DNA from: Candidatus Woesearchaeota archaeon
GTDB taxonomy: Archaea > Nanobdellota > Nanobdellia > Pacearchaeales > UBA284
Assembly: GCA_964354405.1 (NCBI GenBank)
Contig: CAYGZP010000003.1
Span: 8,666 to 32,665, forward strand
DNA length: 24,000 nucleotides
Direction: 5' to 3'
The notes below the pieces were generated by a model that saw only the letters and a program-made list of their open reading frames with translations, was not told where the DNA came from and did not search any database. Of the stretch, positions 13,848 through 20,001 are shown piece by piece. Numbering within the stretch: the stretch's first letter is position 1; every line of letters begins with the position of its first letter. The position numbers were made by a program, and so were the translations under genes.

Positions 13848-13860
13848 GGCCGGGTTAACT
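13848..13860. repeat. 13-bp direct repeat GGCCGGGTTAACT (left copy)
   Basis: Exact match to 14415-14427. It overlaps the stop codon (13855-13857) of the HNH-AP2 gene. Confidence 0.9.
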
Positions 13861-14346
13861 GGTAAATGCGTCACGAAAAGCCATTGCGTCCGTGAGATGC
13901 CTACGATGCGTGTATTTTCGTTGCCCATTACGCTGGACTTGGACTTTCCACCACACTCCCGATTTTCTTGGTATCGTAACTTGTCGAATATTAACCATTT
14001 TGTGGTCGCACCTTTCGGAGTTGATGCAGTTTTCCGATACGGTAGCAATGCGTAAATTTTGTATGCGATTGTCGATTTTTACGCGATTGATGTGATCAAG
14101 AATTCCGTTTGGCCATTCTCCATAAAATAAAACCCATGCTACTCTATGGGCTAACATTTTTTGTCGAACGCCATTATGAAATAATGTTATGGATAAATAT
14201 CCGTGGCCATCACTTGTTCCTGCTGGTTGACCAACTCCTTTTGATGTTGGAACTCCGTTTGATCGAACAGACCCAGCAATCCGAGTGATGATTCCAGTTG
14301 TTGGATTGTAAGAAAAATATTGTCGAATAATTTCAGGTGAGTGCAT
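13855..14346 (-). mobile_element. free-standing HNH-AP2 homing endonuclease gene (163 aa)
   Basis: GYLSITLFHNGVRQKMLAHRVAWVLFYGEWPNGILDHINRVKIDNRIQNLRIATVSENCINS is the classic HNH_3 homing-endonuclease pattern (HR..w...G......DHIN....DNR..NLR). The C-terminal VWWKVQVQRNGQRKYTHRRHLTDAMAFRDAF is AP2-like. It is flanked by 13-bp direct repeats in an otherwise non-coding gap. Confidence 0.8.
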
Positions 14347-15149: not shown

Positions 15150-15328
15150 TTGTAGTAGTCTGTTAGCTGTTGAAGTCCGAGCGTGGCCAATTCCAGTTCT
15201 TCGTAAATTTCTCTGACTGACTCTGGGAAGGGTTTGCCTCGCTGGTGCATGGTGGTTGGACTGCCTGCTGAGTATGGACTGACTCTGAGGTAGTATTTAC
15301 CTTCTTGGATTTCGAGGAAGACGTGCAT
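15104..15328 (-). CDS. hypothetical protein (74 aa); overlaps both neighbours
   Basis: ORF-track entry with globular-looking sequence (VREIYEELELATLGLQQLTDYY). It overlaps the 3' 166 nt of the HTH ORF and the 5' 46 nt of the nuclease ORF. No SD is visible, so its coding status is uncertain. Confidence 0.35.
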   Translation of the reverse strand: MHVFLEIQEGKYYLRVSPYSAGSPTTMHQRGKPFPESVREIYEELELATLGLQQLTDYYKCSVEKKVSKKRVAS

Positions 15329-15576
15329 AATGCGATTACTTTTTCAACCTGTTCTTTTTTAAGAATGCTCTTGGAGTTTACTTCGATCTGATTGATCAAT
15401 GATCCAGTCACGCCGATCTTGTCTCCAAGTTCTCTGACAGTCAACTTCAGTGTTCTGCGTGTCTCACGAAGTTGGTTAGCAAAAGTCTTTCGTCCAAGAG
15501 AACGAACTGTGCGTGATTGCTCGTAGGCACTCATGCAAGTTTCATAGGCATCTTCTAATGGATGTTTCATTTCCAT
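15163..15576 (-). CDS. XRE-family helix-turn-helix transcriptional regulator (137 aa as drawn)
   Basis: LKLTVRELGDKIGVTGSLINQIEVNSKS matches the HTH_3 pattern (helix, turn, then the S...I..IE recognition helix). It is divergent from the rightward early arm. The last ~55 residues are low-complexity (SSSKSKK..QSQSEK) and overlap another ORF, so the true C-terminus is uncertain. The real start may be the second Met, at 15570. Confidence 0.7.
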   Translation of the reverse strand: MEMKHPLEDAYETCMSAYEQSRTVRSLGRKTFANQLRETRRTLKLTVRELGDKIGVTGSLINQIEVNSKSILKKEQVEKVIALCTSSSKSKKVNTTSESVHTQQAVQPPCTSEANPSQSQSEKFTKNWNWPRSDFNS

Positions 15577-16276: not shown

Positions 16277-16549
16277 ATGATTATTAAACGTAATACATTC
16301 ACATTGGTAGAAACACGTCACTTAGATAACATCAAATTATCTGTATCCGGAATTGGTTTATTAACTCACATCACAAGATGGACAGAAGATAACCTTAATA
16401 TAGAGCAGATATTAGATCGCATATACGACATGAGTCACCATGATCCAAGTGCAGCAATCGGATACTTGGAACTTTTGAAAGAAGAAATCATTGAGAATTT
16501 TTTTTCTGAACAAGAATTACAATCAATTCAAGCCTTAGCTGAAGTATGA
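16277..16549 (+). CDS. hypothetical protein (90 aa from the ATG at 16277)
   Basis: ORF-track frame starting at 16205 (a GTG). I chose the internal ATG (MIIKRNTFTLVETRH...). Its stop overlaps the next start (ATGA at 16546). Confidence 0.5.
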   Translation: MIIKRNTFTLVETRHLDNIKLSVSGIGLLTHITRWTEDNLNIEQILDRIYDMSHHDPSAAIGYLELLKEEIIENFFSEQELQSIQALAEV

Positions 16550-17520
16550 AACCGAAAAAACTTGGAAGACTTATTTTAAAGGAAGAGTTGTTCGCTATCA
16601 CTGGATGCTTGGAGGAAGCGATAATCCTAAACCAAATGTGTTATTGGTCGGAAAGAATGAATGAAACAGATAAGTTTTTGGAGGAAGAATACACAATGCT
16701 GGTCGAACACGTCCCTGTATTATCCCACGGATGGATATACAAGTCCGCATCTGAACTGGCTGGTGAAATGTTTGGAGCCGTGAGTGAGAAAACAATGAAT
16801 CGAATATTGGATCGGTTGGTAAAAAAGAATTTTCTTCGTCGCAGATTCAATCCTAATCCGAAGTATAAGTTTGATAAAACATATCACTATCGCGTGAACT
16901 TTGTTGAAATCATGTGCCATTTAAAAAATAAAAAGATGCCATTGAGTGGTTATCATATTATTGAGGAGTTTGTAAACAGACTTGAACAAGGTGTCGCTCC
17001 GAAGCGTCATTTTGACGGATCGGAGAATCATTCTGACGGAGCAATACCAGAGACTATAACAAAAACTACTGACAAAGAAAAACCCCTAACCCCTTTGCAA
17101 GGGGAAGAGGAAAGTTCGGCAATGGCCTCACATTCCTCGGAAGTAGTAACTCAACCAAATCTATTCTCGACTAACCCAAGTGAAGCTAACGCTTCGGGTT
17201 CGGCTATCGCCAAACTGAACTCTGCCGATGGCAATGGAACTACCCCCCCAATTCCGCTCGCCCCCCCACGAACTATCCCGACCGAATTGGATACTCCAGA
17301 ATTCAACGCTGCTTGGAATGAATTCCTTCAACACCGAAAGGAAAAGAAATCTCCAATGACACCAACCGCAAAAAATAATATGTTCCGCAAGTTCACAACT
17401 TGGGGAGTAGAGAACGCAGTCGTTGCAATCGACGCTGCAATCTCAAACGGGTGGACTGGAGTTTTCGAACCAAAACAAAACAAGTCCAATTCAAAACCAG
17501 AACGACTTTGCAGCATTTGA
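16546..17520 (+). CDS. putative replication initiator / replisome-organiser-like protein (324 aa)
   Basis: The N-terminal region (EEAIILNQMCYWSE...GWIYKSASELAGEMFGAVSEKTMNRILDRLVKKNFL) looks like a winged-helix DNA-binding domain. The C-terminal TPEFNAAWNEFLQHRKEKKSPMTPTAKNNMFRKFTTWGVENAVVAIDAAISNGWTGVF resembles the conserved C-terminal module of phage replication proteins (from memory). It lies upstream of the helicase. Confidence 0.55.
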   Translation: MKPKKLGRLILKEELFAITGCLEEAIILNQMCYWSERMNETDKFLEEEYTMLVEHVPVLSHGWIYKSASELAGEMFGAVSEKTMNRILDRLVKKNFLRRRFNPNPKYKFDKTYHYRVNFVEIMCHLKNKKMPLSGYHIIEEFVNRLEQGVAPKRHFDGSENHSDGAIPETITKTTDKEKPLTPLQGEEESSAMASHSSEVVTQPNLFSTNPSEANASGSAIAKLNSADGNGTTPPIPLAPPRTIPTELDTPEFNAAWNEFLQHRKEKKSPMTPTAKNNMFRKFTTWGVENAVVAIDAAISNGWTGVFEPKQNKSNSKPERLCSI

Positions 17521-17536
17521 TTATCGTTACCGATAA
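17521..17536. repeat. palindromic box TTATCGTTACCGATAA (copy 7)
   Basis: Perfect half-sites. The box begins on the nucleotide after the TGA stop at 17518-17520 and lies 25 nt upstream of the methyltransferase ATG. Confidence 0.9.
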
Positions 17537-17561
17537 AACCAAAACCTAAATAGAAAGAAAA

Positions 17562-18314
17562 ATGAATGAGCTACACTTATTTGCTGGAGCAGGGGGAGGA
17601 ATCCTCGGCGGGATGCTTCTCGGACATACCACAGTCTGTGCTGTCGAACTTGAACCTTACTGCCGAAAAGTCCTACTCCAAAGACAACGAGACGGAATCC
17701 TGCCTAAGTTCCCAATCTGGGATGATGTCACAACTTTCGACGGAACTCCGTGGAGAGGAAAAGTCGATGTCGTTTGCGGAGGATTCCCTTGCCCGGATTT
17801 CTCCAATGGAAATCAAAAGGAAAGTAGATTCACAGGACTACAAGGAAACAGGGGAGGACTATGGTTTGAAATGTTTAGGATTATATGCGAAATACGACCC
17901 AAGCTCGTCTTCGTGGAAAATGTGCCAAACCTCATTAAATTTGGGATTGGAACAGTCCTCGGAAATTTGGTCGAAAGCGGGTATAATTCAAGATGGTGTT
18001 TGTTGGGAAGCAAGGATTGCGAAGGAGTTCATAAAAGAGATAGAGCATGGATTCTCGCTACTCACCCCAACATCGACAGACTACAAGAGAAACAACCTAT
18101 CGACTCCAATGTGGGAAAGAAGAATGAAACAAAGGAAGTCTCCGGGGACACTACCAGAGCAATTGGCTTGGATGGGATTCAAGGGTATGTTAGCCCCCAC
18201 ATTGCCGGAAAAAATGATGAGATGGCCAATTGGCTGGACAGGTTTAAAGCAGTTGGAAATGGGCAGGATGCAAGCGTGGCTGCAACAGCATGGAGAATAC
18301 TTGGAGGAGAATAA
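17562..18314 (+). CDS. DNA (cytosine-5) methyltransferase, compact (250 aa)
   Basis: Motif I LFAGAGGG. Motif IV GGFPCPDFS with the catalytic Cys. Motif VI ENVPNL. Motif VIII-like GVHKRDRAWILA. Motif X-like RFKAVGNGQ. All are in the canonical order. Confidence 0.85.
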   Translation: MNELHLFAGAGGGILGGMLLGHTTVCAVELEPYCRKVLLQRQRDGILPKFPIWDDVTTFDGTPWRGKVDVVCGGFPCPDFSNGNQKESRFTGLQGNRGGLWFEMFRIICEIRPKLVFVENVPNLIKFGIGTVLGNLVESGYNSRWCLLGSKDCEGVHKRDRAWILATHPNIDRLQEKQPIDSNVGKKNETKEVSGDTTRAIGLDGIQGYVSPHIAGKNDEMANWLDRFKAVGNGQDASVAATAWRILGGE

Positions 18315-18318
18315 ATGA
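17566..18318 (+). other. second complete 250-codon ORF in the +1 frame of the methyltransferase gene (candidate overlapping gene)
   Basis: The ORF track shows an uninterrupted 250-aa translation, MSYTYLLEQGEESSAGCFSDIP...MMRWPIGWTGLKQLEMGRMQAWLQQHGEYLEENK. Its ATG is 4 nt after the MTase ATG, and its TGA is 4 nt after the MTase TAA and overlaps the helicase ATG. Coding status is unproven. Confidence 0.35.
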
Positions 18319-19547
18319 AAAAAGTCCCAATAGCACGAAAGAGTGAAGCCGCAGCATTGTCGCTGATAGCAATCGACAGAAACATACTTTCCCAACAAAC
18401 ATGGGATAGTGGTTATTTCGCCATAAACGCCAACAGGCTCGTTTTTGAAGCTCTCCAAGGGGTTCACCAGCGGACAGGCGTTTGTTGCCCGTTCTCTGCC
18501 ATCGCAGAGTTGGAAGCTACAGGAAAGTTGGATGCGGCGGGTGGTGAAGAATCTGTCCACGACACATTACGCACGATGAACGTAGCTTCGGGTAAGGTTT
18601 GCCAAGACATGGCTGACGATTATCGGAAGCACCTGCACCGCACAAAATCATACCGCGATGTCATTACACTTTTCGAGAAGGAAGAACCAAACCTACGGAC
18701 AGGTAAGACAAATCTGAAGGAATTATCGGAAACGATAATGAACTCTGCCGAAGATCGGACGACAAAAGTAAAACCAGTCAAAGACCTCATCATCGAAATC
18801 ATTGATGAGATGGAAGGTAAAGCTGTAAAGGAATTCTTTCCTACTGGATTACTCAAAGTAGATCGTGCGCTCAAGGGTGGAATGCACAAAGGAGAGATGA
18901 TGACAGTAGCTTCAGAGACTGGTGGTGGTAAATCCATCTACCTCGTCCAAGCGGCACTCGCTAACCTGCAAGATGGAAAGTCAGTTCTCTTCTTCAGCCT
19001 CGAAATGAAAGCGAAGGACATCCTAACTCGTATGGCTTGTAACTTGGCAGGCTACCCCGTGCGTGAACCAGAGGATTACAAGAACGCAAACCAACACGAA
19101 CTCCTAAAAATCAACTCTGCATTGTTGCAATTACACAAGTTACCCATCGAAATCGTGGATGGAGTAGCCGAAATTGACGAGATTGAGGCCCAAATCAACC
19201 GATATGTAGGAGAAAATCGGGCAGATGTAATCGTCGTAGATTACCTACAAATCATCTCATCTGACGGGGAAGAAGGCAGAGAAAGTCAGATTTCGGAGAT
19301 TGCAAGGAGGCTAAAACTCGCAGCACTGAAGAATAACTCGATTATGCTGACTGCTTCACAACTAAACGACGAGGGAAGACTACGCGAATCACGGGCAATT
19401 GGAATGCACTCTGACCAAGTAGTGTATATCGAACACATCAAGGAGAAGAGTAGGCTGACAATCAAGAAGAACCGCCGTGGTGCGAGGAACTACATGACAG
19501 AAATCGTCATGCGTGGTGACATCTCAAAACTTGAGGAGGTTTACTAA
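18315..19547 (+). CDS. dnaB: DnaB-family replicative DNA helicase (410 aa)
   Basis: The N-terminal SEAAALSLIAIDRNIL matches the DnaB N-domain opening. Walker A ASETGGGKS. FFSLEM. Walker B DVIVVDYLQI. LTASQLNDEGR matches the SQLnR motif. Confidence 0.9.
   Translation: MKKVPIARKSEAAALSLIAIDRNILSQQTWDSGYFAINANRLVFEALQGVHQRTGVCCPFSAIAELEATGKLDAAGGEESVHDTLRTMNVASGKVCQDMADDYRKHLHRTKSYRDVITLFEKEEPNLRTGKTNLKELSETIMNSAEDRTTKVKPVKDLIIEIIDEMEGKAVKEFFPTGLLKVDRALKGGMHKGEMMTVASETGGGKSIYLVQAALANLQDGKSVLFFSLEMKAKDILTRMACNLAGYPVREPEDYKNANQHELLKINSALLQLHKLPIEIVDGVAEIDEIEAQINRYVGENRADVIVVDYLQIISSDGEEGRESQISEIARRLKLAALKNNSIMLTASQLNDEGRLRESRAIGMHSDQVVYIEHIKEKSRLTIKKNRRGARNYMTEIVMRGDISKLEEVY
18723..18738. repeat. 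palindromic box TTATCGGAAACGATAA (copy 8, inside dnaB)
   Basis: Perfect half-sites. It encodes LSETI(M). The 16-mer is identical to copy 5 in terL but is read in a different frame. Confidence 0.9.
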
Positions 19548-19741
19548 TGAATATTGACCAAGCCTATGGAAAATCCATGATGTTTTTCAAGTATGCACTA
19601 GACATCTGGGAGTCTGAAGACAAAGAAAGATATTGCATTGCAGAAAATTACTGGAGTGAGGGAATGAAAATCTACGATGAGTATTTTTCTAATAAAAAAA
19701 TATTGACGCAGATACAAGATGTAGATACGATGCTTCCATGA
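19547..19741 (+). CDS. hypothetical protein (64 aa)
   Basis: ORF-track entry. Its start overlaps the dnaB stop (TAATG) and an SD-like GAGGAGG lies upstream. Confidence 0.55.
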   Translation: MNIDQAYGKSMMFFKYALDIWESEDKERYCIAENYWSEGMKIYDEYFSNKKILTQIQDVDTMLP

Positions 19742-20001
19742 ATAACACAGAAACAATAATCAAATACCTCAAGCTCTACAACGAGTGGAGGCGCGGCGAT
19801 GAAAAGATGGGACAACCCAATCCTACTGAGATTGGAAAGTTGATTGATGAAGCGTGTGAAATGCTTATTTCATTAGAACGCGAGCGCGACGAGGCGCGGG
19901 AGGCATTGATGGCATTTAACCATGATAAAAAACACCTTTGCGATTCACACAAAGACATGATCGGAAATTGCATGGTTTGCAGCATGAATGAAACAAAATG
20001 A
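19738..20001 (+). CDS. small ERERDEA-motif protein, array member 1 (87 aa)
   Basis: Contains LISLERERDEAREALMAF. The N-terminal YNEWRRGDEKMGQPNPTEIGKLIDEA resembles a small phage protein family I recall. It has ATGA overlaps at both ends. Confidence 0.65.
   Translation: MNNTETIIKYLKLYNEWRRGDEKMGQPNPTEIGKLIDEACEMLISLERERDEAREALMAFNHDKKHLCDSHKDMIGNCMVCSMNETK

Follow-up and report, generated by a model that had tools for sequence, protein, structure and literature searches.

Does a phage gene that can be read from end to end in two frames encode one methyltransferase or the two chains of one? The question is raised by positions 17562–18318 of a 24,000-nucleotide (nt) stretch of contig CAYGZP010000003.1 (hereafter, the window), deposited as Candidatus Woesearchaeota archaeon. 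The first open reading frame (ORF), alpha, lies at 17562–18314 of the forward strand (frame 1, 250 codons) and carries motifs I, IV, VI, VIII, and X of a C5 cytosine methyltransferase, whose large catalytic domain it encodes. The second, beta, lies at 17566–18318 of the same strand in the +1 frame (frame 2, also 250 codons) and runs from an N-terminal extension through a target recognition domain (TRD) module and motif IX to a C-terminal tail. An earlier note, made from the letters alone, had described both frames as open for 250 codons, with nested starts and stops. This is read directly in the sequence: the starts share ATG-A-ATG (ATGAATG, 17562–17568, forward strand; alpha at 17562, beta at 17566) and the stops share TAAATGA (18312–18318, forward strand), in which TAA closes alpha, TGA closes beta, and the ATG of dnaB (18315; Pfam DnaB_C, E=2.4e-30) lies between them, the beta stop and the dnaB start overlapping as ATGA. 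Beta thus starts 4 nt and stops 4 nt after alpha, and the two are coextensive, beta not being internal. The +2 frame of the gene has 16 stops. We observed both ORFs, their conservation, a frame-specific selection, a conserved second start, and homology of beta to TRD and motif IX sequences, and consider it most likely that the locus encodes, in two coextensive frames, a C5 methyltransferase that is a heterodimer like M.EcoHK31I.

The identity of alpha is clear. It matches Pfam PF00145 (DNA_methylase) with E=1.4e-28 and 100.8 bits (cutoff 22), over profile positions 3–176 of 324 and the first 183 alpha residues. All the peptide strings quoted in the earlier note were found in place. Motif I (LFAGAGGG, 17577–17600, S-adenosylmethionine binding) was read directly and aligned to motif I of M.HhaI; motif VI (ENVPNL, 17916–17933) was likewise read directly and aligned; motif IV (GGFPCPDFS, 17778–17804) holds the catalytic cysteine; motif VIII (HKRDRAWILA, 18030–18059) ends the frame-1-selected region A; and motif X (FKAVGNGQ, 18243–18266) contains the invariant G232 and N233, all on the forward strand. 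The order I (FxGxG), IV (PC), VI (ENV), VIII (RxR), and X (GN) is therefore intact. Between VIII and X, however, where the TRD and motif IX would be looked for, the alpha polypeptide has only a linker (frame-1 residues 167–226, 18060–18239, forward strand) that is open, unconserved, and predicted to be disordered. The corresponding strings sit in frame 2 of the same strand: a TRD module, LLTPTSTDYK (18058–18087; the 'LLPTP.A.D.K' unit), and a motif IX element, LPEKMMRWPIGWT (18202–18240; family consensus LNP..VEWLMGWPIGWT), which includes EKMMRWPIGWT.

The predicted structures follow the same division. The AlphaFold 2 model of alpha had a predicted template modelling score of 0.73, with a predicted local distance difference test (pLDDT) of 86–96 over residues 1–170, 30–42 over 174–234, and 93 over 241–250, and in Foldseek it matched the large domain of M.HhaI and M.HaeIII (E ~1e-14, 172–189 columns). 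Beta modelled alone had a mean pLDDT of 46.7, with 31–45 in region A and its best values, 62–71, over residues 171–210. Model confidence is thus complementary between the two predicted chains. As for motif IV, the near-universal form, PCQ, is also that of the remaining family members; the window and its closest relatives have PCP, and one relative (L010) has PCT.

The open +1 frame is not a product of chance. In our test, the synonymous codons of frame 1 were resampled with the alpha protein held fixed, and the +1 stops were counted: a mean of 5.6 was expected, and none was observed. The probability of having no +1 stop was 0.002 with the codon usage of the window, 4.5e-4 with that of the gene, and 5e-5 when the codons of the gene were permuted. 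The value of (61/64)^250, about 6e-6, offered in the earlier note is arithmetically right but naive as a chance estimate. The codon shuffling that the note had called for left the +1 frame stop-free in 0.2% (window usage) to 0.005% (permuted codons) of cases. Because of this resampling, and because of the 16 stops in the +2 frame, we take the observation to be real and not an accident of codon usage.

Homologues gave the same result. From 80 IMG/VR relatives and eight isolate-phage loci, 86 complete genes were obtained, with 42–91% frame-1 identity. Internal +1 stops were absent from 84 of them, and the two exceptions were single nonsense changes in a +1 frame that was otherwise intact, while the +2 frames had 6–23 stops each; an ordinary density of +1 stops was not seen. 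After thinning to 45 lineages with less than 70% identity, frame 2 over motifs I–VIII (region A) had nine stops against 110 expected by synonymous permutation, a deficit of about twelve-fold in 39 lineages with a GC content of 44–59%. Conversely, frame 1 over the middle region (region B, the linker) had no stops against 57 expected (35 lineages). Each frame is therefore kept open where the other carries the information. A tblastn search of isolate phages with the frame-2 product returned full-length matches (98% coverage, E down to 1e-22) lying within annotated cytosine methyltransferase genes. For Salmonella phage S9-5, Vibrio phage 1.091.O, and an uncultured spring phage, it is the +1 frame of that gene that matches, and in Pseudomonas phage phPA-G the +1 ORF is itself annotated, as a hypothetical protein. 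A megablast search of the locus against isolate phage genomes gave no match, and by this measure the window has no close cultured relative.

The frame that carries the information changes along the gene. When nucleotide diversity was resolved by codon position, the most variable position was frame-1 position 3 over codons 1–160 and again over codons 231–250, and frame-2 position 3 over codons 211–230; over codons 171–210, every position was saturated. Column identities agree with this switch, the frame-1 linker columns having values of 0.06–0.27. Judged by these patterns of variation, selection switches frame along the gene, frame 1 being held at motifs I, IV, VI, VIII, and X and frame 2 at LLTPTSTDYK and the motif IX element. 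The length of the middle region varies among relatives by insertions bearing one to four copies of WPTP.A.D.K, which are readable in frame 2 only; in frame 1, the same insertions are featureless.

These results separate the motif-like strings that the earlier note had picked out of frame 2. EKMMRWPIGWT, which it had found to resemble motif IX and to be confined to that frame, is real frame-2 content, since the frame-2 signature falls on codons 211–230, and so is LLTPTSTDYK, a module repeated in the insertions of relatives. The supposed images of motif IV (EDSLARISP) and motif X (LKQLEMG) for the most part mirror the conservation of frame 1; over motif IV, the residues of frame 2 vary among relatives with the third bases of frame 1.

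Suppressed synonymous variation, which the note had suggested as a further check, was found only in part. At fourfold third positions of codons 2–165, raw identity exceeded the composition expectation by 1.4–2.4 times, with local peaks at codons 2–40 and 120–140, and another at 226–250, beyond region A. Against DnaB of the same phages at matched divergence, however, most of the excess vanished and a modest remainder was left (0.44 vs 0.31, 0.51 vs 0.48, and 0.57 vs 0.52, methyltransferase vs DnaB). For this reason, we limit the claim for the N-terminal half of beta to its being kept open and weakly constrained in sequence, and its translation is probable. Strong amino acid selection on this half was considered and dropped, given the modest fourfold excess over DnaB. 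The half may serve association of the chains, as in M.EcoHK31I, or be a mere leader that comes with the shared start.

Beta appears to have a conserved start of its own. The sequence NTGAATGAG was present in 64 of the 79 distinct homologues, and among these 64, the alpha start was ATG in 49, GTG in 12, and TTG in three, whereas the beta ATG was invariant. In all 64 genes in which alpha starts with M-N-E, the Asn-2 codon is AAT, the codon that creates A-ATG, the beta start; elsewhere in the same genes, AAT accounts for 47% of Asn codons. Genes with N-terminal extensions retain TAAATGAG. The leader of the window gene (17538–17561, aaatagaaagaaaaATGAATG) has no canonical GGAGG Shine-Dalgarno sequence and is identical in three relatives (L027, L044, and L052), while clear GGAGG-like sites are present 5' of the starts in other relatives. 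The leader without GGAGG may bear on the host or on the choice between the two starts.

What beta encodes could be recognized from relatives in which the same elements are read in frame. Frame 2 of the window matched no Pfam family, and because HMMER is too insensitive for a region of about 40 residues, in-frame relatives were used for motif IX. The Arthrobacter phage Leona has two overlapping genes annotated as 'DNA methylase'. Gene 41 encodes motifs I–VIII, and gene 42, which begins in the +1 frame where gene 41 is ending, encodes three LLPTP modules followed by a motif IX element, given as FTEWMMGQPAGWIT and also as EWMMGQPAGWIT, with LKACGNGVV (motif X) 12 residues later. A database search with Leona gp42 led to single-chain enzymes, such as P0313 (410 aa), in which motifs I, IV, VI, and VIII, three copies of LLPTP, FSEWLMGWPDGWVT, and GNGVCPQQA are all encoded in one frame. 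The three LLPTP copies are there in frame between motifs VIII and IX, and in both P0313 and Leona gp42 the motif IX element lies in frame 12 residues before motif X. On the strength of these single-chain relatives and of Leona gp42, we identify the LLPTP modules and EWLMGWP.GW as the TRD and motif IX of this clade.

Profile comparisons are consistent with that identification. HMMER placed LNP..VEWLMGWPIGW on motif IX of M.HhaI (RKLHPRECARVMGYPDSY) and the tail of frame 1 on motif X, collinearly. A composite profile aligned DNMT3B from end to end (positions 2–239, 35.7 bits), whereas the alignment of the frame-1-only profile ended at position 110 (28.9 bits). Frame 2 of the window belongs with phrog_1008, annotated as 'DNA methyltransferase' (E=3e-8), which also matched Leona gp42 (5e-65) and a nested ORF of Paenibacillus phages (6e-72); in the latter, a nested +1 'internal gene', ending ...VECLMGFPIGWT, has been annotated.

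Taken together, the comparative evidence supports throughout the suggestion of a two-product methyltransferase, one of the options raised in the earlier note. Alpha, translated from 17562, would supply the large domain for S-adenosylmethionine binding and catalysis (motifs I–VIII), continue as a passive, unstructured linker, and end with motif X. Beta, translated from the ATG four bases downstream, would open with an extension of about 165 weakly constrained residues and then supply the TRD module (LLTPTSTDYK...) and motif IX (EKMMRWPIGWT), both absent from alpha. The two would associate, as the chains of M.EcoHK31I do, the C-terminal part of beta forming the small DNA-recognizing domain on the alpha core. 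In this scheme, both frames would be translated and their products assemble into a complex that would be the active enzyme, the ratio of the subunits would be set by the nested starts, which share one ribosome-binding region, and the enzyme would probably shield phage DNA from host restriction. The notion of a true overprinted gene holds insofar as the +1 ORF behaves as a real gene, but it is not a newly born one, since the conserved part of beta is an ancestral TRD and motif IX. De novo overprinting was rejected for the same homology to single-chain enzymes; only the N-terminal extension of beta looks like overprinted sequence.

Several points weigh against this heterodimer reading. Its support consists of sequence comparisons, predicted structures, and the precedent of M.EcoHK31I. 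The direct match to motif IX is weak, as the second HMMER domain on M.HhaI scored –1.7 bits and is not significant alone. The frame-2 family profile by itself found no methyltransferase in the PDB or Pfam, and Pfam searches with a hand-made composite, with Leona gp42, or with the beta of Paenibacillus phage Bloom never reached motifs IX–X. Beta alone gave the poor model described above, and the need for some 165 weakly constrained N-terminal residues is unexplained. Furthermore, in M.EcoHK31I the TRD has been assigned to alpha, while the LLPTP.A.D.K modules of the window are in the beta frame only.

Other explanations account for parts of these observations. Alpha alone might be a complete minimal methyltransferase, with its variable middle as TRD, and beta an independent gene with another function. 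All the catalytic motifs and the motif X helix are indeed within alpha, and beta has no Pfam domain and is labelled 'hypothetical protein' hundreds of times. We nevertheless consider this unlikely: the middle of alpha is unconserved, predicted to be disordered, and without a signature of frame-1 selection, its insertions are structured in frame 2 only, and the conserved elements of beta correspond to the TRD and motif IX that single-chain relatives have in frame and that split relatives have on their beta subunits. Moreover, the alpha chain of M.EcoHK31I is inactive without beta (PMC2836561). A second possibility, foreshadowed in the earlier note as a frameshift-dependent methyltransferase, is a composite polypeptide made by two programmed frameshifts, +1 after motif VIII and –1 after motif IX, which would restore the canonical order. 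The composite does have that order and aligns with DNMT3B better than frame 1 alone, and a T_TTA_AAG heptamer (18243–18249, forward strand), a possible –1 slippery site, stands in the correct frame-2 register exactly at the second junction. Heptamers of the X_XXY_YYZ type were found near the frame-2 to frame-1 junction in only three of 41 lineages, however, and no conserved feature was seen at the first junction, from frame 1 to frame 2; we judge the heptamer of the window to be incidental. Double frameshifting would require neither an open frame 2 over codons 1–165, nor an open frame 1 over 167–226, nor a beta ATG, yet all three are strongly kept, and the frames stay open far past the junctions. 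In addition, the segment of alpha before motif X, RVDRLKA, and the tail of beta motif IX, GWTDLKP, are encoded by the same nucleotides, so that no single shift preserves both. This possibility was set aside as very improbable.

We attach hardly any credence to the view that the open frame 2 is an untranslated by-product of amino acid composition, codon usage, or nucleotide constraint. The similarity of frame 2 over motifs I–VIII is partly a shadow of strong frame-1 conservation, and the fourfold sites are only modestly more conserved than those of DnaB at matched divergence, and both points speak for a by-product. This view would leave unaccounted for the twelve-fold stop deficit across lineages of diverse GC content, next to a +2 frame full of stops, the beta ATG kept through a biased synonymous codon, the frame-2 wobble signature at codons 211–230, and the modular insertions readable in frame 2. 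The codon-usage artefact listed among the options in the earlier note falls with it, being contradicted by the resampling, by the 84 of 86 homologues, and by the stop deficit in the thinned lineages. Finally, a decaying single-chain gene with two compensating indels, or sequencing errors in the contig, can be given practically no weight. Database chimeras that switch frame at a G-run (P0139 and P0145) would fit such an origin, but the identical arrangement of frames recurs in hundreds of independent contigs, isolate phages, and bacterial genomes of many phyla. Compensating indels or errors were dropped as candidates given the same layout in phages of Salmonella, Vibrio, Pseudomonas, Porphyromonas, Synechococcus, Sulfitobacter, and Mycobacterium.

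The heterodimer reading, if correct, would apply far beyond the window, to thousands of phage and prophage genes that are entered in databases as single genes. At least 8000 members of the frame-1 family are present in a large protein database; a word search turned up more than 500 frame-2 ORFs, and an exhaustive search with the beta profile gave 24,728 clusters at E <=1e-3 and 3,862 at E <=1e-30 (clusters at 50% identity). Both searches bear out the statement in the earlier note that databases contain 'hypothetical proteins' derived from the +1 frame. The layout was surveyed in 80 loci from bacterial and archaeal genomes, and nearly all the analysable ones had a long +1 ORF ending in EWLMG[FW]P.GWT and an alpha ending in motif X. 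They came from Pseudomonas, Kluyvera, Citrobacter, Pantoea, Verrucomicrobia, Planctomycetes, Lentisphaerae, Patescibacteria, Chloroflexi, Cyanobacteria, Bacteroidetes, Spirochaetes, Actinobacteria, and one Methanophagales metagenome-assembled genome. The +1 ORF began at alpha codon 0–1 in closer relatives and at codon 20–110 in distant ones. These sequence comparisons suggest that phages and prophages across many phyla commonly carry nested alpha/beta genes. In E. coli, relatives of the Salmonella phage S9-5 gene were found in only four of 5426 complete genomes (H91–H94), and RefSeq annotates there the alpha ORF alone, as 'DNA cytosine methyltransferase'. No paper describing the phage-wide pattern or its breadth was found in the literature searched.

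A few survey loci were AquI-like or apparently single-frame. In two of them (L126 and L134), alpha ends at about codon 170–188 and the +1 ORF continues, in an AquI-like way, the +1 tail of L126 having CLGNGQVP. In two loci of Rickettsiaceae/Candidatus Megaera (L156 and L160), the alpha frame has a motif IX-like GFPEGWT as well as motif X, and the +1 frame has LLPTP-type modules.

Comparison with close relatives showed that the methyltransferase gene is a hotspot of mosaicism. Positions 17494–19750 of the window were compared with seven related phage sequences (L068, L047, L017, L018, L044, L081, and L009). In four of these (L068, L047, L017, and L044), identity to the window was 89–94% up to about 17793 and 83–91% from about 18215 through dnaB; between these two positions, no match could be detected at the nucleotide level. 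Where DnaB was 87–98% identical to that of the window at the protein level, the methyltransferase was only 46–59% identical; L009, on the other hand, shared the methyltransferase gene only (92%) and not its flanks. The exchangeable central cassette is thus delimited to 17794–18214 (forward strand), from just after motif IV to just before the beta motif IX, a pattern that suggests exchange by recombination at conserved motifs IV and IX.

Chimeric ORFs were also found in the databases. P0139 and P0145, of 249 aa and from public assemblies, begin in frame 2 and pass into frame 1 after a G-run (GGGGAGG, 17851–17857). The part that matches frame 1, 61% of the query, is 86–89% identical to the window. 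A comparable chimera, P0281, belongs to the Arthrobacter-phage-type family. With both frames open, an insertion or deletion of one nucleotide leaves a full-length ORF, and these chimeras may be natural variants or assembly errors.

Whether these observations extend to a rule is, in our judgement, an evenly balanced question. Under such a rule, most small (about 230–350 aa) C5 methyltransferases of phages and prophages, in many phyla, would be obligate alpha/beta enzymes encoded in overlapping frames, with their specificity in +1-frame LLPTP.A.D.K cassettes exchanged by recombination at motifs IV and IX; in the coextensive subtype, starts 4 nt apart would fix the ratio of the subunits. If this holds, few known functional overlaps of same-strand genes would be longer or more widespread in any genome. 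Annotation pipelines call one ORF, and alpha would then be taken as a complete enzyme and beta as a 'hypothetical protein' without a Pfam family; expressing small methyltransferases from alpha alone, or predicting specificity from it, would fail. For the study of overlap evolution, the family would offer hundreds of independent same-strand overlaps of 700–1000 nt with a known biochemical rationale, a graded series from single chain through partial overlap and nested to coextensive genes, and a clean division into segments in which one frame is functional and the other merely kept open. The swapping of the central cassette between otherwise near-identical phages is consistent with rapid change of methylation specificity in a phage–host arms race. 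The interest of the locus lies in the completeness of its overlap, in the very wide and largely unannotated distribution of the layout, and in its use as a natural model of long same-strand overlaps.

The surroundings of the gene were also inspected. Immediately upstream, a 324-aa ORF (16546–17520) has a weak, sub-threshold MarR/winged-helix match (E=6e-4), and its C-terminal 80 residues recur beside the methyltransferase in several relatives (L042, L054, L059, and L077). Further upstream, on the reverse strand, are an ORF for an HNH_3 endonuclease (13858–14346, E=5e-16) and one for a helix-turn-helix protein of the Cro/CI type (15166–15576), which are ordinary content of a phage early region.

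Among known systems, the closest is M.EcoHK31I of E. coli HK31, which recognizes YGGCCR (Lee, Kam & Shaw 1995), as described in passages of PMC2836561 and PMC3404938. According to these, its beta is encoded wholly within the alpha gene, on the same strand and in another frame, and alpha bears motifs I–VIII, X, and the predicted TRD, while beta bears motif IX (PMC2836561; PMC3404938). Alpha is inactive without beta, and the chains must associate; the association is weakened by deletions at the N terminus of beta, the part that overlaps the conserved core of alpha (PMC2836561). With M.AquI, it is cited as an exception among the monomeric C5 methyltransferases (PMC3404938). Compared by its published description, the window has the same arrangement of a same-strand beta in another frame within the alpha gene, and its predicted chains divide the motifs likewise, I–VIII and X on alpha and IX on beta. 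It differs in that the overlap is complete (250 and 250 codons, with 4-nt offsets) instead of a shorter internal ORF, and in that the gene is a phage gene adjoining dnaB. No restriction-enzyme gene was seen among the neighbours checked.

The pairs of Paenibacillus larvae phages (gp49 of Diva with its 'g49 internal gene', gp50, and gp56/gp57 of Bloom) are similar as well, with a nested +1 ORF ending ...LNPDWVECLMGFPIGWT that falls in the same PHROG as frame 2 of the window (phrog_1008) and an alpha that keeps motif X. There, however, beta is annotated, starts at alpha codon 68, and has 234 aa within an alpha of 351 aa; no discussion of the internal gene was found in the phage papers searched. 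M.AquI, which the earlier note had cited as precedent, fits as a split C5 enzyme encoded by overlapping same-strand genes, its second subunit bearing the TRD and motif IX, and Leona gp41/gp42 is built in the same way. In both, unlike in the window, alpha ends soon after motif VIII, beta carries motif X, and the genes overlap only in part (by about 250 nt in Leona). Alpha of the window is full length, with motif X back in its frame. M.EcoHK31I, with its nested beta in another frame carrying motif IX, is the better precedent. Single-chain relatives such as P0313 have the same motif set and the same style of TRD and motif IX, but all in one frame and one polypeptide. What is new here is the complete overlap with nested starts and the TRD modules in beta; the two-polypeptide system itself is of a kind already known.

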